Of a stretch of 64,000 bases of DNA, positions 15,653-56,474 are shown in pieces. A program made the translations under genes and the position numbers. Origin of the DNA: Anaerolineales bacterium (GTDB lineage: Bacteria > Chloroflexota > Anaerolineae > Anaerolineales > E44-bin32); assembly GCA_034430615.1 (NCBI GenBank), contig DAOUEJ010000216.1, positions 19,016 to 83,015 on the forward strand, given 5' to 3'. The first letter of the stretch is position 1. Each line of letters begins with the position of its first letter. The notes beneath the pieces are model-generated. The model was not told the origin of the DNA. It saw only the letters and a program-made list of their open reading frames with translations, and made no database searches.

Positions 15653-15710
15653 ACGGGAAGGATCTTCATTCGAGTAAATTAATTGAGTGAATCATCTCCC
15701 GGAAATAGTA

Positions 15711-15734
15711 TGGGCAAGGTGACCTTGCCCCTAC
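15711..15734 (-). repeat. REP-like unit GTAGGGGCAAGG-TCA-CCTTGCCCA
   Basis: Minus-strand reading gives a GTAG head followed by an 8-bp stem. It is in inverted orientation to the GTAGGGGC unit at 15753, 18 bp away, and could also act as the nuclease-gene terminator. Confidence 0.55.
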
Positions 15735-15746
15735 GCGTATATATTA

Positions 15747-17503
15747 ACGATTGTAGGGGCTGTCCCAAAAGGGCAGCCCCATTCGCGTTTTAAGAGCAAA
15801 TCACTAGAATGGGGGACATGAAAAAGAAGAAAAGTCCACACGCTGTGTTCAAACCCTACACGATGGGCCAGCTGCAGCTCCCTACGAATCTAGAAGACCT
15901 CATCCCCGATGGTCACCTGGTGAGAAGGGTGCATGAAGCGATTGAGCGGGTGAATCTAGATCCCCTGATCCAGCAATACAAAGGGGGAGGGACCAGCAGC
16001 TACCATCCGAAGATGATGTTGAAGGTGCTGGTGTATGCCTACACCCAGCAGATCTACTCGTCACGGAAGATTGCCAAGGCGCTGCGGGAGAACATCCACT
16101 TCATGTGGATCAGCGGGAACAGCAGGCCGGACTTCCGCACGATCAACCGCTTCCGGGGCGAAGTGCTCGGGAAGGTGATGGCCGAGATCTTCACTGCGGT
16201 TCTCGAGCTGCTGATCGAAGAAGGCTATGTGAAGCTGGAGCATTATTTCCTGGACGGGACGAAGATCGAAGCCAATGCGGGCAAGTACACCTATGTGTGG
16301 GCGAAGAGCACGAAGCGAAACAAGGGCCAGTTGCAGGCGAAAGTGAAGCAGCTGCTGGAAGAGATCGAGCGGGTGAACAAGGACGAAGAAGAGGAGTATG
16401 GAGATCGTGATCTTGAAGAGCTGGGCGAAGAAGCTGAGATCGACGCCGACCGATTGGACAAGAAGGTCAAGGAGCTGGACGAGATCCTCCAGCGCGGATT
16501 GAGTGAAGGGGAGAAAAAGCCGGACAAGCGCGACAAGAAACGTGCGAAAGCCCTGAGGATCCTGGAGAAGGAATGCCTACCCCGCCTGCGAAAGTATGAA
16601 GAACAGGAGCGGATCCTGCAGGGACGGGGCAGCTATTCGAAGACGGATGAGGAAGCTACCTTCATGCGCATGAAGGATGATCCTCTGCGGAAGGCGCAGC
16701 TCAAGCCTGCCTATACCATCCTGGCACAGGGCAACCTCCAGTTGGGGACCGAGAACCAGTTTGTGGTTGGACTGAGTGTTCATCAGCGGCCGGGAGACAC
16801 AGGCTGTATGGTGCCGCATATGGAAGGGGTGAAAGCCCGCCTCGGCCGGCTTCCGGAGAAAGTCGTCGCGGACGCTGGTTATGGCAGCGAAGAGAACTAT
16901 GTCTACCTGGAAGAGCGAGGTGTGGAAGGCTTCGTGAAGTACAACACCTTCCACCAGGAACAGAAGAAGCGGAGCCGGAAGACGCGTTTCCTCGCCGAGC
17001 AGTTCCCTTACAACGAAGAGAAGGATGAGTTCATCTGTCCGGATGGGCGACGCATGCTCTATCGTGAGACAAGCCGATACAGGACAGAGAATAACTACTT
17101 GAAGGAAGTCCGCGTCTACGAGTGTGAAGGCTGCGCCGGGTGTAGGCTTCGCGCCGAGTGTACACATTCGAAGGAAAACAGACGCATTCGTGTGAGCTTT
17201 GTGCTGCAAGAATTGCGTGCAAAGGCCAGAGATCGTTTGCTCTCCGAAGAAGGGTTGGCTTTGCGTTCCAGACGCCCTGTGGAAGCGGAAAGCGTATTTG
17301 GGAGATTGAAACAGAATTGGCAGTTCAGAAGGTTGATGCTCCGGGGATTGAGAAAAGTAGAGACCGAGCTTAGCCTGCTCTGCATTGCACACAACCTATC
17401 AAAAATGACGGTTGCATAGCCGCCGTTCTTTTTTTTGCCACGCAAAAGTATGGAGAAAGGGCCGTCCAAGCTTCTTTTTGGACGGCCCCTACGGGTATCG
17501 TTG
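15747..17503 (+). mobile_element. IS1182-family insertion sequence (approximate ends)
   Basis: A single transposase ORF is flanked by inverted termini: aacgat..GTAGGGGCTGTCCCAAAAGGGCAGCCCC on the left and GGGCCGTCCAAGCTTCTTTTTGGACGGCCCCTAC..atcgtt on the right. I could not identify a target-site duplication. Confidence 0.7.
15809..17419 (+). CDS. IS1182-family (IS5-like DDE) transposase
   Basis: 536 aa. The N-terminus reads YTMGQLQLPTNLEDLIPDGHLVRRV...YHPKMMLKVLVYAYTQQIYSSRKIA. A central charged coiled region is followed by ADAGYGSEENY and the C-terminal LRGLRKVETELSLLCIAHNL. Confidence 0.9.
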   Translation: MGDMKKKKSPHAVFKPYTMGQLQLPTNLEDLIPDGHLVRRVHEAIERVNLDPLIQQYKGGGTSSYHPKMMLKVLVYAYTQQIYSSRKIAKALRENIHFMWISGNSRPDFRTINRFRGEVLGKVMAEIFTAVLELLIEEGYVKLEHYFLDGTKIEANAGKYTYVWAKSTKRNKGQLQAKVKQLLEEIERVNKDEEEEYGDRDLEELGEEAEIDADRLDKKVKELDEILQRGLSEGEKKPDKRDKKRAKALRILEKECLPRLRKYEEQERILQGRGSYSKTDEEATFMRMKDDPLRKAQLKPAYTILAQGNLQLGTENQFVVGLSVHQRPGDTGCMVPHMEGVKARLGRLPEKVVADAGYGSEENYVYLEERGVEGFVKYNTFHQEQKKRSRKTRFLAEQFPYNEEKDEFICPDGRRMLYRETSRYRTENNYLKEVRVYECEGCAGCRLRAECTHSKENRRIRVSFVLQELRAKARDRLLSEEGLALRSRRPVEAESVFGRLKQNWQFRRLMLRGLRKVETELSLLCIAHNLSKMTVA

Positions 17504-19262: not shown

Positions 19263-19531
19263 TCTGAGCTGCCATAGCCCTTTCCAATGAATATGATCCA
19301 GCAAACAACTGGGAGAATTCGTTTACATAGCGGAAGAGCTAATCTGTACCTTCGATATATGTCCCAACCCACAGCATTTCATATCACGTTTTGATCACGA
19401 ACAACTTTTCCAAGGAATCGTTTTACTACTAAAGAGGGCATGTCAATCGTGAGTTCATAGTAACCGCCCTGGCCTAAATCGGACAGGAAGCCTCTGGTTA
19501 TAGTCGGGTGGGCCATGGCGTTAATGGAGAA

Positions 19532-19555
19532 ACGGGGCGCCTGTAGGCGCCCCGT
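19532..19555. terminator. GC-rich 24-nt palindrome acggggcgcctgtaggcgccccgt between convergent genes
   Basis: A perfect inverted repeat 32 nt downstream of the ABC substrate-binding gene stop, so it could terminate in both directions. It resembles the GGGGC-stem REP-like units seen elsewhere in the window. Confidence 0.45.
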
Positions 19556-19586
19556 CTGCGTTCATAGTTCGAACTCGATGACCGGG

Positions 19587-20993
19587 TTACTGCGTCTCGG
19601 CCAACGCCTCGGCTGCGGATGCGTTCAGCTCTGCCAGCAAAGTCGGGATCTGGTCGGCATCGCTCTGCAAGATAGCCGAGAAGGTATCCTGGACATCACG
19701 GCGAACCGTGCCCCAGGAAGCCCAGCCCGGTTCTCCAACACCGTACGGTGCCAGGTCAAGACCCTGCGCCCAGAGCGGGTTTGTGGCAGCATAGTCGGCA
19801 AGCAGATCAACTGCGCTGGCCCGAATCGGGTAGTACGCGCTGGCTTCGATCCACTTGGCATTGATCTCGGGGCTGGTAAACCACTTCAGGAACAACCAGG
19901 AAGCCACTTCCTTCTCAGGGGTTGATTTCACGATGGCCGAGTACTGTACGTAGGCATCTACGCCCTGCGTCCCACCGTCTCCCACAAAGGGGGTAAACGT
20001 CCAGACATCGTCATGGAAGGCACCCTCGGCCTCGAAAGCATCCGCCTGGTAGGTGTAGCCGGCGGTTGAGCTGATCGTGATCAATGCGCGGCGGGTGGCG
20101 AATTCGGGGTTCGGATAACCTTCGGTGGCGTAGGCGCAGCCCTCATCCCAGATTTCCTTCCAGAATTCGGCTGTGCGCACGACAGCCGGGTTGGTGAAGT
20201 CATAGCCATCACCGGCTTCGTTGTACATGGTCCCGCCCAATCCGAAGACGAAGGAGGCGACGTTGCTGGCACCGGTGTATAGCACCAACCCGCCCTGGCC
20301 ATCGTTGTCAGGGTTGTCATCGGCCGTATTGGCAGCCGTCGCGGCGCAGATCTGCGCTTTGTACTCATCGAGCGTCGTCGGCGGCGCGGCGAAACCAAGT
20401 TCCTCGGCCCAAGTGTTATTATAGAAGTTCACGTTCTCAGACTGCCCATGCGGGAAGCCTACCCGGACACCATTGGCGTTGACCCCGCCATCCCAAGCGC
20501 CGGTGTAGTAATCGGCGATCTCTTCCCCGGTCAGGCCCCAATCAGGATCATTGATGTAGCTATCCAGATCGGCCATCACATCGACCGAATGCCAGGTGTC
20601 GAGGGCGTTGGTGTAGCCCACGACGACATTGGGCAGGTCGCCGGACTGGATGGCGGCGTTCATCGCGTCTTCCAGGTCACGGTAGGCGCCCTGGTCGAGC
20701 GCCTCGACCGTGATGCCCCATTCGTTGGTGGCGTTGAATTCATCTACGATCGCCATCAAACCTTCACCAGTCGAGCCCGTGCCCCACACGTGCCAGAAGG
20801 TCACGGTCTGACCACTCGGGTCGACCGCCGGCATGGCCGGTTCAGGTGTCGGCTCCACCATCGGTGCTTCTGTGGGTGGGACGGCGGCTGGTGGTTCGGT
20901 AGGAGCTTCGGTGGCTGCCGGTGAACAGGCTGAGAGCGCAAGCGGCAGGACCAACGCCACGAGAAGCAACCAGGCGTACATATTCTTCTTCAT
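19587..20993 (-). CDS. Sugar ABC transporter substrate-binding lipoprotein (family 1)
   Basis: Signal peptide with lipobox LALSAC, a Pro/Thr/Ala-rich linker, then a typical extracellular solute-binding fold. First gene of a three-gene operon. Confidence 0.9.
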   Translation of the reverse strand: MKKNMYAWLLLVALVLPLALSACSPAATEAPTEPPAAVPPTEAPMVEPTPEPAMPAVDPSGQTVTFWHVWGTGSTGEGLMAIVDEFNATNEWGITVEALDQGAYRDLEDAMNAAIQSGDLPNVVVGYTNALDTWHSVDVMADLDSYINDPDWGLTGEEIADYYTGAWDGGVNANGVRVGFPHGQSENVNFYNNTWAEELGFAAPPTTLDEYKAQICAATAANTADDNPDNDGQGGLVLYTGASNVASFVFGLGGTMYNEAGDGYDFTNPAVVRTAEFWKEIWDEGCAYATEGYPNPEFATRRALITISSTAGYTYQADAFEAEGAFHDDVWTFTPFVGDGGTQGVDAYVQYSAIVKSTPEKEVASWLFLKWFTSPEINAKWIEASAYYPIRASAVDLLADYAATNPLWAQGLDLAPYGVGEPGWASWGTVRRDVQDTFSAILQSDADQIPTLLAELNASAAEALAETQ

Positions 20994-32128: not shown

Positions 32129-32202
32129 GGAACCCTCCTGGAATCATCATTCGATCATGCGATTGTAAGCTTCAAGCAATCCCGATGCAAAAACAATGTA
32201 AC

Positions 32203-32227
32203 GGCACAGCGATGCCGTGCCCTCTAT
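32203..32227 (-). repeat. REP-like unit with degenerate head, ATAGAGGGCACGGC-ATC-GCTGTGCC, at the 3' flank of rayT
   Basis: On the minus strand it resembles the GTAGGGGCACGGC unit at 32780 and is in inverted orientation to it. The TAG of the head is the rayT stop codon (32226..32224). Confidence 0.55.
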
Positions 32228-32766
32228 GAATCTGGTATGTAATATGGGTCCAAACGCCAGCGGATAGAATTTTCGGTGATGTAGCATCGGATGCGGTTAA
32301 GTTTCGCCTCGTCCCGGATCACATGTTCGTAGTAATTGCGCTGCCAGACGATGAAATGCAGATCACGGTGAAATCGCCTCACGCCTGTCGTAACCGATCC
32401 TTTGAATTGCCCGATAATCGAGCCGAGTGACCGGGGAGGCCGATGTAGGGGCGCATCGCGATGCGCCCCTACTGGAACCGGCTTGTCCGATTCGTCAGTA
32501 ATTTGGATTATTAAGTGAACGTGGTTTGGCATGATAACAAATCGATCTATTTCGATACCACGTCTAAGGATTTGAAATCTCTTCAGTTCGTCCTCGACTA
32601 TCAATCCGATGGGTGAAAGAAATAATCTTTCCTCGGATATCTCGCTAAGGATTTGCCGCTTGTGAAAGGCACATATCGTCACGAAATACGCGCCGGGTCG
32701 GGTGTAATCGTACCCGGGCAAGCGCGTTGATCGCCGGCGATTTGGATGGTCGCTGGATCCGGTCAC
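32224..32766 (-). CDS. rayT: REP-associated tyrosine transposase (RayT / IS200-like Y1 transposase family)
   Basis: RLPGYDYTRPGAYFVTICAFHKRQ, HUH motif MPNHVHLII, C-terminal VWQRNYYEHVIRDE (catalytic Tyr region). Flanked by inverted GTAG-headed palindromes. Confidence 0.85.
   Translation of the reverse strand: MTGSSDHPNRRRSTRLPGYDYTRPGAYFVTICAFHKRQILSEISEERLFLSPIGLIVEDELKRFQILRRGIEIDRFVIMPNHVHLIIQITDESDKPVPVGAHRDAPLHRPPRSLGSIIGQFKGSVTTGVRRFHRDLHFIVWQRNYYEHVIRDEAKLNRIRCYITENSIRWRLDPYYIPDS
32445..32472. repeat. Perfect 28-nt palindrome GTAGGGGCGCATCGCGATGCGCCCCTAC inside the rayT coding sequence
   Basis: Read directly. It encodes VGAHRDAPLH just after the HUH motif. It has the same GTAGGGGC head as the intergenic REP-like units. 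Confidence 0.8.
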
Positions 32767-32779
32767 TATCCCCTGATTT

Positions 32780-32805
32780 GTAGGGGCACGGCGGGGCCGT
32801 GCCCC
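32780..32805 (+). repeat. REP unit GTAGGGGCACGGC-GGG-GCCGTGCCCC between the rayT start and the leuS stop
   Basis: A GTAG head plus a 10-bp stem in the 44-bp rayT/leuS spacer. It could double as the leuS terminator hairpin. Confidence 0.7.
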
Positions 32806-32810
32806 ATTTA

Positions 32811-35261
32811 TTACACGACGATATTCACCAACCGCCCCGGGACGACGATCACCTCCCGCGGCTGTTTACCTTCCATGAACCGCTTCGCCCCTTCGCTCTC
32901 CAGCGCCAGCTTGCGCGCCTGCTCTTCAGAGATATCGGCTGCCACGGTTAGCTTGTCGCGCACCTTGCCGTTTACCTGCACGACGAGCGTGATCTCATCT
33001 TCCTTGGCCAGCTCAGCATCAAATTCCGGCCAGGTCTGATTATGGATCGAATAGGGCATCTCCAGCCTCGACCACAGCTCTTCGGCGATATGCGGCGTTG
33101 CCGGCGCCATGAGAAGCAGCAGCATCTCCAACGCACGCTGGCAATCGGCCCTGGACACCGATCTAGACCCTTTCGCAGAAACGATCTCGTTCGTCAGTTC
33201 CATCAAACTTGAAATCACGGTATTGAACTCAAACTTCTCGAGATCGTTTGAAACGTGCCGGATGGTCTGGTGCACCTTACGCTCGAGCGCCCGCAGCGCG
33301 TCGGGCTGTGATCCAGGCGTCTGCATCTCGAGCACCTCATGCCCCAGCGACCATACCCGGTTCAACCAGCGCACAACTCCCTGGATGTTGTCCGGGTTCC
33401 AGGTACCGCCCTCCGACCAGCGGTATCCGAACATCAGGTAGGCCCTGACTGTATCCGCGCCGTACATCTTGACCTGTTCGTCGGGGTCGATAACGTTTCC
33501 GCGCGATTTACTCATGCGCTGCCCATCCGGACCCAGGATCTGGCCCTGGTTGCGCAGCTGCAGCATGGGCTCATTCCCCTCGGTTATGCCAAGGTCACGC
33601 AGAGCCTTGTGGAAAAAACGGGTGTAGATGAGGTGCATCGTGGCGTGCTCGACCCCGCCCGTATACGTATCGACCGGCATCCAGTAGTCATACTCACCCG
33701 GATCGAATGGCCCCTCTGAATACTGCGGGCTGAGGTAGCGCAGATGGTACCAGGAGGAGCACATGAATGTGTCCATCGTGTCAGTCTCACGCTCGGCTGG
33801 TCGCCCACAATCAGGGCACTGCGTGTATTTCCAGGTCGGGTGAAACTTGAGCGGGCTCTCGCCCGTTGGCCGCCACTCGATATCCTCCGGCAGTTCGACC
33901 GGCAGCTGTTCCTCGGGTACAGGCACGATGCCGCAATCCGGGCAGTAAACAACCGGGATCGGCGCTCCCCAGTAGCGCTGGCGTGAGATCAACCAGTCGT
34001 GCAAGCGGTAGTTGACCGAAAACTCACCTGTTCCTTTCGATTTTAGGAAATCGATGGTGTACTGGAAGGCTTTATCCGCTGGTGTTCCCGTCAGCGAGCC
34101 GGAGTTGATCATCTCACCATAGGCCGGTATGGCCTCGGTCATGCCCTCACCATCGAGGCTGTCATAACCCGCTGGCAAGATGACTGGGCGCACTTCCAGT
34201 TTGAATTTCCGTGCAAATTCGAAGTCGCGCTGGTCATGCGCTGGGACGGCCATGATCGCACCCGTGCCGTAGGTCATGAGCACGTAATCCGCGATCCAGA
34301 CCGGGATGCGTTCGTCATTGACCGGATTCATGGCATAACCACCGGTAAAGACGCCGCTTTTATCCTTGTCAAGCGCCTCACGCTCGATGTCCGACTGGCG
34401 TGCCGCCTGGTGGATGTACTCGTGAACGGCCTCGTGCTGCTCGGGCGTGGTCAGTTTCTCGACCAGCGGATGCTCGGGCGCTAACACCATGAAGGTTGCT
34501 CCCCACAGCGTATCCGGCCGGGTTGTAAAGACCTCGATCGCGTCACCATCTTCGGTGACAAAGGTCACCGTGGCCCCTTCGCTGCGACCGATCCAGTTCG
34601 TCTGCAGGATCTTGACCGTCTCCGGCCAATCGATCGTCGAGAAGTCGAGCAGTTCATCCGCATAGCGGGTGATGCGGAAAAACCATTGATCGAGGTCCTT
34701 CTTGATCACGGGCGTCTTGCAGCGCTCACAGACCCGGTTGTCACCAATCACCTGCTCGCGCGCCAGGGTCGTATTGCAGTTCGGGCACCAGTCGACAGGA
34801 GAATATTTCTTATACGCAAGATCATTCTTGAGAAACTGCAGGAAGAACCACTGCGTCCAGCGGTAATAAGCTGGATCGGCCGAGATCGCCTCCCGCGACC
34901 AATCCCACATGGCTCCCATGCTGCGCAGCTGGCGGCGCATGTTCTCGATATTCTTGTAAGTCCATTCCTTGGGGTGGATGTCACGGGCGATGGCGGCATT
35001 CTCGGCCGGCAGGCCAAAGGCATCGAAACCGATCGGGAAGGTTACATTGTAGCCGCGCATGTGCAGATAGCGCGCCCGCGCATCGGAGGGGGTCATGGCG
35101 AACCAGTGACCGATGTGCATATCCCCCGAGGTATAGGGGAGCATCGTGAGGAAGTAATACTTCTCACGATCTGGATCGACCCGGGCTTCATACAGCCGAT
35201 CGTCCACCCAGCGCGCCTGCCAGCGCGGCTCGATCTCTTCTGGTCGATATTGCTCCTGCAT
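32811..35261 (-). CDS. leuS: Leucine--tRNA ligase
   Basis: Start at MQEQYRPEEIEPRWQARW. HIGH-type motif PYTSGDMHIGH and KMSKS motif QRMSKSRGN, with the full-length bacterial LeuS pattern. The 37-codon upstream extension in the track overlaps the T-box leader and was rejected. Confidence 0.95.
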   Translation of the reverse strand: MQEQYRPEEIEPRWQARWVDDRLYEARVDPDREKYYFLTMLPYTSGDMHIGHWFAMTPSDARARYLHMRGYNVTFPIGFDAFGLPAENAAIARDIHPKEWTYKNIENMRRQLRSMGAMWDWSREAISADPAYYRWTQWFFLQFLKNDLAYKKYSPVDWCPNCNTTLAREQVIGDNRVCERCKTPVIKKDLDQWFFRITRYADELLDFSTIDWPETVKILQTNWIGRSEGATVTFVTEDGDAIEVFTTRPDTLWGATFMVLAPEHPLVEKLTTPEQHEAVHEYIHQAARQSDIEREALDKDKSGVFTGGYAMNPVNDERIPVWIADYVLMTYGTGAIMAVPAHDQRDFEFARKFKLEVRPVILPAGYDSLDGEGMTEAIPAYGEMINSGSLTGTPADKAFQYTIDFLKSKGTGEFSVNYRLHDWLISRQRYWGAPIPVVYCPDCGIVPVPEEQLPVELPEDIEWRPTGESPLKFHPTWKYTQCPDCGRPAERETDTMDTFMCSSWYHLRYLSPQYSEGPFDPGEYDYWMPVDTYTGGVEHATMHLIYTRFFHKALRDLGITEGNEPMLQLRNQGQILGPDGQRMSKSRGNVIDPDEQVKMYGADTVRAYLMFGYRWSEGGTWNPDNIQGVVRWLNRVWSLGHEVLEMQTPGSQPDALRALERKVHQTIRHVSNDLEKFEFNTVISSLMELTNEIVSAKGSRSVSRADCQRALEMLLLLMAPATPHIAEELWSRLEMPYSIHNQTWPEFDAELAKEDEITLVVQVNGKVRDKLTVAADISEEQARKLALESEGAKRFMEGKQPREVIVVPGRLVNIVV

Positions 35262-35590: not shown

Positions 35591-35663
35591 TGGACCCAGT
35601 GGGATTCGAACCCACGACCTTCTCAATGCCATTGAGACGCGCTCCCAACTGCGCTATGGGCCC
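35591..35663 (-). tRNA. tRNA-Ala (anticodon GGC)
   Basis: Folded by hand into a 73-nt cloverleaf: GGGCCCA-TA-GCGC-AGTTGGGA-GCGC-G-TCTCA-ATGGCAT-TGAGA-AGGTC-GTGGG-TTCGAAT-CCCAC-TGGGTCC-A. G3:U70 identity pair present. CCA is not encoded. Confidence 0.9.
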
Positions 35664-35676
35664 ATGCAAGTTCAGG

Positions 35677-35749
35677 TGGACCTGGCGGGATTCGAACCCG
35701 CGACCTCATCAGTGCGATTGATGCGCGCTCCCAACTGCGCTACAGGCCC
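35677..35749 (-). tRNA. tRNA-Ala (anticodon CGC)
   Basis: Folded by hand into a 73-nt cloverleaf: GGGCCTG-TA-GCGC-AGTTGGGA-GCGC-G-CATCA-ATCGCAC-TGATG-AGGTC-GCGGG-TTCGAAT-CCCGC-CAGGTCC-A. G3:U70 present. CCA is not encoded. Confidence 0.9.
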
Positions 35750-55865: not shown

Positions 55866-56474
55866 TTACAGTTCGCGGTCAAACCATAATTCACGGTACT
55901 CACGGTTCCAATTTGAAGTAGCTCGCAGAGCTATGATGATGCCCACACCGGCGGCGATCGCCAGCGCTTCCGGGCTTGCCCTAAAAATCCACCAGAGTGG
56001 CGTCAGCAGCAATCCGCCGGTGAAGTTTCCCCGAGCCGAATGGCGGATGAGGATCTGCATTATGGCTGCCAACCCGACCCCCAGGATGAAACCGAACGGC
56101 CATATAGCAAGCAGCGCCCCGCCCCCAGTAGCCATCCCCATCCCGCCACGCATACCGGCTAGGACCGGCCAGCAATGTCCTATCACGAGCGCACCAGCAG
56201 CCAACCCAAGGCCCAGCAGCCCCTGGACAAGATGCATCGCCAGCCTCATCGCCAGGTAGCCTTTCCCCAGGTCCAGCAGCAGGACCGCGATGCCCGCCAC
56301 CCACCCGGCAGAGCGCATGACGTTGGTCGCGCCCGCGTGTCCTGAACCAGTCTGGCGGATGTCGCCGCCTGTGGTCCAGCGCGTGATCCAAACTGCAAAG
56401 GGAAGTGAGCCAAGGGCATAGGCGATCAGGATTGCCACAGTTGAGTTCAACAAGACTGGTGCCAGTTCTCCCAT
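55866..56474 (-). CDS. plsY: Glycerol-3-phosphate acyltransferase PlsY
   Basis: A ggagagg RBS precedes ATG 56474. YALGSLPFAVWI....GGDIRQTGSGHAGATNVMR....G......LDLGKG. Confidence 0.85.
   Translation of the reverse strand: MGELAPVLLNSTVAILIAYALGSLPFAVWITRWTTGGDIRQTGSGHAGATNVMRSAGWVAGIAVLLLDLGKGYLAMRLAMHLVQGLLGLGLAAGALVIGHCWPVLAGMRGGMGMATGGGALLAIWPFGFILGVGLAAIMQILIRHSARGNFTGGLLLTPLWWIFRASPEALAIAAGVGIIIALRATSNWNREYRELWFDREL

Follow-up and report, generated by a model that had tools for sequence, protein, structure and literature searches.

We analysed a 64-kb stretch of DNA from an Anaerolineales bacterium (contig DAOUEJ010000216.1, positions 19,016 to 83,015; hereafter the window) in which a short rayT-like gene carries a perfect palindrome inside its own coding sequence. 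The gene lies on the minus strand at 32224..32766, between leuS and ridA, has a GTG start (32766) and a TAG stop, and codes for a protein of 180 amino acids of the TnpA_REP/RAYT (REP-associated tyrosine transposase) kind of Y1/HUH single-stranded DNA (ssDNA) nuclease. The codons CAC GTT CAC of its HUH motif, H82-V83-H84, are found at 32515..32523 (-) and the codon of the predicted catalytic tyrosine, Y162, at 32281..32283 (-), both placed by an alignment of homologs (alignment A1) and by alignment to 4er8, the structure of E. coli TnpA_REP. The gene is flanked by GTAG-headed hairpins resembling repetitive extragenic palindromic (REP) sequences, with their heads proximal to it. The internal palindrome, GTAGGGGCGCATCG|CGATGCGCCCCTAC (reading GTAGGGGCGCATCGCGATGCGCCCCTAC), occupies positions 32445..32472, belongs to neither strand and encodes residues V99-H108. 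An earlier note on this DNA had described the locus as a REPtron, a rayT gene between inverted REPs, with one hairpin on each side and one within the gene; all three hairpins are present where it had placed them.

The relationship of the protein to E. coli TnpA_REP is supported by sequence profiles and by fold, in agreement with that description. It passes the gathering cutoff of Pfam PF01797 (Y1_Tnp, IS200-like; 28.5 bits, cutoff 23), and its best NCBIfam match is NF047646, REP_Tyr_transpos (58.6 bits, E = 6e-16), the NCBIfam IS200 model scoring far lower, at 20.8 bits. More than 7900 homologs were found, several of them named 'REP element-mobilizing transposase RayT' by JGI, and the named relatives belong to the Anaerolineales/Chloroflexota. 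Residues H82, H84 and Y162 are invariant in alignment A1. When a profile of 35 homologs was compared with PDB sequences, the sole match was 4er8, in which H59/H61 (H59-M-H61) align with H82/H84, and Y115 with Y162; these residues have been named as the HUH motif and the catalytic tyrosine of that enzyme (PMC3479197). The AlphaFold2 (AF2) model of the protein has a predicted local distance difference test score (pLDDT) of 85.9, and Foldseek matches it with probability 1.0 to ISDra2 (2xm3), TnpA_REP (4er8) and IS608, with 2vjv and 2f4f also among the entries listed; the structural alignment with 4er8 gives about 17% identity.

The gene does not behave as an insertion sequence (IS). No second RayT-like motif pair was found within the window, where rayT is consequently single copy, and neither tnpB nor the several identical enclosed units by which IS200/IS605 insertion sequences are recognised occur there; no long inverted repeats were seen around rayT. 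An ortholog with 68% identity on another metagenome contig (L081) keeps the same order of leuS, rayT, ridA, response regulator and histidine kinase. Because of this synteny, rayT is considered to be vertically inherited in place, as domesticated RAYTs are.

The two 14-nt arms of the internal palindrome are 100% complementary and have no spacer between them. No other perfect palindrome as long as this occurs in the 64 kb, where the chance expectation is about 2e-4 (64000 x 4^-14), and as ssDNA it folds with -15.3 kcal/mol (z = -5.5). Read on the minus strand, GTA GGG GCG CAT CGC GAT GCG CCC CTA CAT gives VGAHRDAPLH, residues 99-108. This peptide begins 15 residues past the HUH motif, so that the earlier wording, 'immediately after' that motif, was loose. 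In the AF2 model VGAHRDAPLH is a coil with a pLDDT of 53-66, lying between the HUH strand (82-89) and a helix (114-133), and homologs free of the palindrome have shorter loops; both observations directly support the proposal that a REP insertion was tolerated in a variable loop.

Comparison of the window gene with its syntenic ortholog L081 points to conservation of the palindrome as DNA. All 28 of its nucleotides are identical in L081 and stand at the same codon position, whereas outside the palindrome nucleotide identity is 64%, only 43% of the codons for the same amino acid are identical and synonymous sites are saturated. On codon identity alone, the probability that all nine full codons of the palindrome (9/9) are identical is about 5e-4. 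L081 has neither of the flanking REPs of the window: a different hairpin follows its leuS, and none follows its rayT. Among RayTs that are 50-66% identical, with 30-57% of same-amino-acid codons identical, 26-28 of the 28 nt are common, in a comparison that is partly circular as the groups were picked by half-site. Judged from these alignments, the RayT coding sequence is evidently constrained at synonymous sites by a DNA-level element.

Such an element is the rule in the RayT family and not a peculiarity of the window gene. We examined the DNA of the best 80 of more than 572 homolog loci (34-48% identical), most of them from metagenome-assembled genomes, which represent Chloroflexota, Cyanobacteria, Planctomycetota, Acidobacteriota, Bacteroidota, Nitrospirota, Patescibacteria and other phyla, and 77 genes could be scored. 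In the segment from the HUH motif to WQRNYY, a perfect stem of 8 bp or more is present in 63 of the 77 genes, and in 30 it reaches 14 bp or more; in two sets of control segments of equal length from the same genes, a stem of at least 8 bp was present in 1/77 and 4/77. The mean best stem observed was 10.8, versus 5.3 after synonymous codon resampling. The commonest form of the element is a 28-nt GTAG-GGGC-N6|N6-GCCC-CTAC, with many different and fully compensated interiors. Both stop-free phases are in use, GTA-GGG, read as VGA...APL (the VGAHGRAPL type), and xGT-AGG, read as RGG...APT (the RGGSRTAPT type), while the third phase would yield a TAG stop. The consensus of alignment A1 after the HUH motif is VGAHGxAPLH, and the loop peptides of 71 of the 117 closest homolog proteins, and none of the shuffled loops, can be back-translated to a perfect GTAG..CTAC 28-mer. 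What the homologs have in common is hence palindromic DNA in two reading phases, and not the one fixed peptide whose uniform presence would have spoken against the earlier note. Inspection of the sequences beside the internal palindromes showed no conserved insertion target, with only an occasional extension of the palindrome by 1-6 bp.

The type of the internal palindrome is related both to the REPs around each gene and to the phylogeny of RayT. In 764 kb of homolog loci there are 261 GTAG-headed hairpins, against 6-42 for eight control tetramer heads; a ninth control head, TAGG, gave 226, these being the same hairpins recounted one base shifted. The GTAG-headed hairpins are concentrated in and beside RayT genes, where the usual order is REP - HUH half - REP - Tyr half - REP. 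Of the 32 loci having both an internal hairpin and one near the gene (within 400 nt), 25 have the same stem in the two (permutation mean 2.0, maximum 7.5), which lends indirect support to the suggestion of a potential substrate site for the gene's own product. An internal GTAG hairpin is present in 57 loci versus 40 with a near-gene one, and the internal copy is thus the most persistent part of these REPtrons. When the loop is masked, palindrome types cluster by clade on the RayT tree (GGSRTAPT, GATHASPL, GARHAVPL, GATRRVAPT, GAIHELPL, DTARRVPT and others). Within the clade of type GGGCGTATGG, the palindrome is read in phase 0 in L012 and in phase 1 in its sister gene L024, the internal copies of L031 and L023 are decayed, and in L033 the element is confined to the flanks, so that gain, maintenance and decay of the internal element all occur.

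Some of the homolog loci have features of their own. Two contigs carry pairs of RayT paralogs, about 100 nt apart in L001 (5908-7271) and about 900 nt apart in L050 (5968-8029); the L001 paralogs differ in internal type and phase (GCGCACGG in phase 0, GCGGTTCG in phase 1), and those of L050 have the same type. In L025 (6590-6974), seven GTAG hairpins spaced about 62 nt apart lie directly downstream of a rayT with an inverted REP doublet in its ORF (open reading frame). The plasmid AP024711.1 of Leptolinea sp. HRD-7 (L202-L206), the only close match in the plasmid collection, bears a classical REPtron without an internal REP: its rayT (182232-182738) has three GTAG-GGG(C/T)GGA hairpins upstream and three downstream, and a cluster of six alternating REPs resembling a bacterial interspersed mosaic element (BIME) is found at 56164-56472. 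Two gene calls in alignment A1 are extended by read-through of flanking REPs, P0012 at the N-terminus (MGAGHKVCPY…) and P0062 at the C-terminus (…GARHTVPLLQ); read-through REPs are a likely cause of mis-annotated starts and stops in homolog gene calls.

Returning to the window, the upstream REP (32780..32805, +) has the form GTAG GGGCACGGC ggg GCCGTGCCC C, with a 10-bp stem and a GGG loop, and its head is proximal to rayT. It is located in the spacer of 44 nt that separates the leuS stop (32811-32813) from the GTG start of rayT, where it precedes the ribosome-binding site of the latter, and it folds as ssDNA with -14.3 kcal/mol (z = -5.5). The downstream REP (32203..32227, -), ATAG A GGGCACGGC atc GCTGTGCC, also has its head proximal to rayT and is degenerate: ATAGA replaces GTAG, there is one G.T mismatch, and folding is weaker (-7.4 kcal/mol, z = -2.8). 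Its TAG (32226-32224) is the stop codon of rayT, as had been noticed, and in at least 8 homolog loci (L007, L008, L021, L030, L048, L070, L071, L074) a GTAG hairpin begins 3 nt before the rayT ORF ends. The downstream REP, which has a T-rich tail, may double as a weak terminator. The arm GGGCACGGC is common to both flanks in inverted orientation; it occurs four times in the window, three of them within this pair of hairpins.

The head is repeated elsewhere in the window, as the earlier note would lead one to expect. GTAGGGGC occurs 6 times, against 1.25 expected, and none of 100 shuffles reached 6. Three further intergenic GTAG-GGGC hairpins share it. A facing pair, its heads separated by 18 nt, occupies the spacer at 15708..15781 (15734-15712 on the minus strand, 15753-15779 on the plus strand); the two resemble a REP dimer and are of the same REP class with differing stems. 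The third, on the minus strand at 17459..17492, has an 11-bp stem and an 8-nt loop and lies just past the stop of ORF 15809-17419. These three hairpins, at 15.7 and 17.5 kb, follow plus-strand genes, and their stems differ from one another and from those of the rayT locus. In total, the window has 5-6 GTAG-GGGC hairpins, among which 4-5 different stems are represented, the internal type once. In addition, a perfect 11-bp inverted repeat, ACGGGGCGCCT ag AGGCGCCCCGT (19532-19555), overlaps the start of ORF 19515-19925; it has a REP-like GGGGCG core and no GTAG head.

The exact 28-mer is also found far from RayT genes. A scan of metagenome contigs gave at least 118 stretches, and 117 loci were examined; the matches listed are not a random sample, and the contigs of the window are not among them. 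Among these listed matches, none of the 117 loci has a RayT gene, the G+C content of the loci ranges from 33 to 73%, and the share of copies in open frames is only mildly below that of random positions in the same loci. The 28-mer is accordingly a discrete and very widely dispersed element that tolerates coding regions, and its near-universal presence in one RayT loop is far above its intragenic background. In four loci (L091 4430-4500, L119 700-760, L129 2087-2150, L157 8721-8800) the full palindrome is accompanied by partial copies of one arm in tandem (…GCGATGCGCCCCTAC repeated), a pattern suggestive of slippage, or of nick-and-copy occurring repeatedly at the CTAC end. In 14 others, in AT-rich DNA (L090, L099, L100, L105, L106, L108, L115, L117, L118, L120, L133, L166, L182, L194), the 28-mer is centrally placed within a longer repeat that is conserved (…ACCATTGAC[palindrome]…GATCAAAACCTGGTAAAAATATT), which could be a composite element or a MITE (miniature inverted-repeat transposable element) carrying the palindrome. 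Carriage by phages was considered as a cause of the wide distribution and rejected, because viral contigs give only 4 weak relatives.

The explanation towards which we incline on balance is that the locus is a vertically inherited REPtron whose internal palindrome is a REP-class site, kept at the DNA level for its RayT clade and not as a peptide. The single-copy RayT gene between leuS and ridA would have a GTAG-headed REP on either side, one of them intact and the other decayed, and its 28-bp palindrome would be one of a set of discrete, widespread GTAG...CTAC palindromes, seated in the one loop of RayT that appears dispensable, from the HUH strand to the next helix, and preserved as the sequence-specific site of the RayT clade bearing it. 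Statements about function are based on analogy with one characterised enzyme, E. coli TnpA_REP. This enzyme binds the 5' GTAG base-specifically, A3 and G4 are placed to pair with a CT dinucleotide, cleavage takes place between C and T, and a hairpin with randomized sequence is not bound (PMC3479197). In the single-stranded state, either strand of the 28-mer would fold to the same hairpin, in which G4 and A3 could pair with two bases of the CTAC tail, C25 and T26, in a guide/cleavage-site geometry like that proposed for TnpA_REP; each strand would present both guide and cleavage site and might form a self-contained substrate of its RayT clade. From this analogy we infer that the window RayT may bind or cleave the palindrome, and that the palindrome may have a seed or feedback role.

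The location of the palindrome inside the ORF has consequences of its own, since recombination or loss of the flanks cannot separate it from the gene. We propose that enzyme and cognate site are therefore always co-inherited, with the site acting as a linked 'seed' copy that may also feed back on expression. Linkage of this kind would explain why the palindrome persists despite decay of the flanks, why types and clades cluster together and why the 28-mer is conserved as a whole. More speculatively, and as an idea that we hold to be doubtful though worth stating, 28-bp GTAG...CTAC palindromes might be minimal mobile elements with a heritable master copy within the nuclease gene, an 'inside-out' transposon in which the transposase ORF encloses the mobile DNA, RayT clades and palindrome types co-diversifying as a protein-DNA recognition code. 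If this were true, a transfer of nothing but the gene would carry the template to seed a new genome, which would explain the identical 28-mers in organisms of 33-73% GC.

A number of observations weigh against a site kept for its RayT clade. The NF047646 score of the protein is below the equivalog cutoff of 80. The internal stem, GCGCATCG, is not that of the flanks, ACGGC, and the GTAGGGGC head is their only common part, so that the 'perfect copy of the REP palindrome' seen in the coding sequence by the earlier note is indeed a perfect palindrome but not a copy of the flanks. The stem is also unlike those of the three other GTAG hairpins, and the internal arm is unrepeated in the window. Since the internal stem differs from every other GTAG hairpin of the 64 kb, no extragenic copy of the cognate type was found in the window, which is one of the 7 of 32 loci where internal and near-gene stems differ. 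In the family, the internal element starts anywhere from 5 to 23 codons past the HUH motif, and varies in copy number and in orientation (single elements, 8 '+' vs 8 '-'); tandem and inverted doublets occur within ORFs (L005, L017, L025, L028, L032, L049, L062, L069). It is absent or decayed in L004, L023, L033, L070 and the Leptolinea plasmid RayT, and is therefore not essential. Of the 117 listed copies of the 28-mer, 40-50 (about 40%) are in open frames of at least 200-300 amino acids, read as VGAHRDAPL or xRGASRCAPT, and an intragenic landing is thus ordinary for this sequence, in frame as it is in many unrelated genes. Because position, copy number and orientation vary, repeated insertion without function would also fit. 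The palindrome would then be a neutral scar: RayT would insert REPs preferentially close to its own gene, within which only the dispensable HUH-helix loop would tolerate an insert in frame, and survivorship would leave one there in almost all family members, with no role. This account, to which we give some credence but which we think doubtful, would cover the clustering of REPs around RayT genes, the disordered loop, the doublets that mirror extragenic REP arrangements, the variable phase of the element (one type being in different phases in the sisters L012 and L024), the empty or decayed internal sites of L033 and L023 beside intact flanking copies in the same clade, and the frequent in-frame copies in other long ORFs. 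It leaves unaccounted for the 28 identical nucleotides at the same codon position in L081, which is synonymously saturated and free of the flanking REPs (P ~5e-4), the internal copies that outlast flanking ones (57 vs 40 loci), and the discrete types that stay intact across proteins only 50-60% identical.

Three other explanations were weighed. Hairpins keep the level of the IS200 tnpA transposase low, and by likeness the GC-rich stem might, in the mRNA or the non-template strand, limit translation or transcription or direct RNA processing without any recognition by RayT. Down-regulation of RAYT expression by REP hairpins has been suggested by Di Nocera et al. (PMC3733652), and a very stable hairpin occurring in both orientations (8 vs 8) is what would be expected if structure alone mattered; yet structure alone would permit free compensatory drift, whereas the GTAG/CTAC ends, the stem and the centre are identical in the ortholog and within clades, and the element matches the type of the flanking REPs. 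For these reasons we regard a purely structural hairpin as unlikely. A functional peptide, VGAHxxAPLH, of which the palindromic DNA would be a codon by-product, could claim the wide occurrence of the consensus VGAHGxAPLH among close homologs. It is the least probable explanation, and we rejected it: the same DNA palindromes yield RGGSRTAPT or GRGVWPYAPT when read in the other phase, the stems are lost on synonymous resampling, GTA and CTA, which are rare codons, are fixed, the tripeptides at the centre (HRD, HGR, HGH, HCN, QGP) are precisely the ones that a palindrome allows, and the region is a low-confidence coil that is missing from some homologs. As for the flanking hairpins, they could simply terminate the leuS and rayT transcripts or stabilise their mRNA ends, in which case the likeness to GTAG REPs would be incidental. 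A terminator-like scan flags both of them, the downstream one has its T-rich tail, and the different hairpin after leuS in L081 may mean that a hairpin is needed there whatever its sequence. However, the scan gives no excess over shuffles (2 vs 1.4) and flags the upstream site on the plus strand, opposite to leuS and rayT; moreover, the flanks have the inverted arm GGGCACGGC in common, three more hairpins in intergenic spacers have the GTAGGGGC head, and GTAG hairpins are about 6-16 times commoner around homologs than hairpins with most control tetramer heads. We therefore consider an incidental likeness very unlikely, although these hairpins may also act as terminators or stabilisers, which is compatible with their being REPs.

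Compared with known systems, the locus is closest to the REPtron, described in E. coli as tnpA_REP (yafM/rayT) flanked by REP/BIME sequences (PMC2817692; PMC3333891; PMC3479197). It resembles REPtrons in its single-copy Y1/HUH gene, GTAG-headed flanking hairpins, HUH and Tyr residues aligned to 4er8 and syntenic inheritance, and differs in the internal, two-fold symmetric 28-mer, which carries both GTAG and CTAC, and in REP types that the RayT family shares across phyla, those of REPtrons being species-specific. The HUH-helix loop of YafM is short. A REP inside the coding sequence of a REPtron is not mentioned in the literature searched. Intragenic GTAG/CGTC REPs have been reported in unrelated genes such as uvrA and recB, and GTAG termini often give TAG stops (PMC3733652). 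These, like Rickettsia palindromic elements, are short palindromes in frame within genes and presumably tolerated in loops; here, in contrast to the intragenic REPs of PMC3733652, the host is the presumed nuclease gene of the element itself, and one loop is occupied in most members. In the supplementary files of PMC3733652 'transposase' and 'IS200' were not found, and 'RAYT' appears only in an alignment file.

In REPIN-RAYT systems (REPINs being inverted REP doublets) of Pseudomonas and Enterobacteria, domesticated RAYTs have a long-term vertical association with cognate REPs (PMC5581495). The loci studied here are similar in the vertical association of RAYT with REP and in inverted REP doublets, some of them here within coding sequence; REPINs, unlike these elements, are extragenic and lineage-specific with no internal copy described, whereas identical 28-mers are found here in contigs of 33-73% GC. 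REPIN-RAYT systems were reportedly also treated by Bertels and Rainey in 2011. RAYT 'Group 4' comprises members from Cyanobacteria, Chlorobia and Caldilineae (PMC5581495), and the family of the window RayT may overlap with it. IS200/IS605 elements such as IS608 and ISDra2 have the same fold and chemistry, and their subterminal hairpins are recognised through a 5' guide tetranucleotide, but IS ends enclose the gene in a multicopy unit, while here a single-copy syntenic gene has the hairpin inside. Outside Proteobacteria, RAYT-like genes flanked by repeats of other kinds, some including a GGGG-rich motif, are known as TIRYT/TIRtron (PMC3733652); long terminal inverted repeats flank TIRYT genes, and GTAG hairpins flank the rayT of the window.

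REPtrons and GTAG REPs, REPs that lie within genes and the supply of TAG stops by REPs are thus already known (PMC2817692, PMC3333891, PMC3733652, PMC5581495). What is new is an internal, clade-matched palindrome within a REPtron with a RAYT-like nuclease, membership being assigned by architecture and fold and not as an NCBIfam equivalog; in the searchable literature, outside which most subscription journals fall, neither a REP within the coding sequence of a rayT nor these 28-mers nor the peptides they encode are mentioned. The copying of REPs, which with their RAYTs are among the commonest bacterial repeats, and the way in which enzyme and repeat stay matched are open questions. Kept within the gene in about 80% of a very large nuclease family, a palindrome of the cognate type amounts to a built-in label of the DNA that each RayT probably recognises. 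Dozens of natural enzyme/site pairs would thereby be available for specificity studies and for the engineering of HUH tags, and a testable route is offered for the co-inheritance and seeding of REP populations. The element also explains recurrent odd peptides (VGAHGRAPL, GGSRTAPT, GAIHELPL and similar ones) in many predicted metagenome proteins.

Some minor features of the surroundings may be added. An Rfam scan of the window gave nothing beyond two tRNAs, which are adjacent genes upstream of leuS (35591-35663 and 35677-35749, both on the minus strand; 66.7 and 65.8 bits), and over both of which the ORF finder draws long spurious ORFs. Finally, a sigma-70-like promoter match, TTTGCA-18-TACAAT, is found at 32162-32191 (-), between the decayed REP and the ridA start, and would allow transcription of ridA independently of leuS-rayT.

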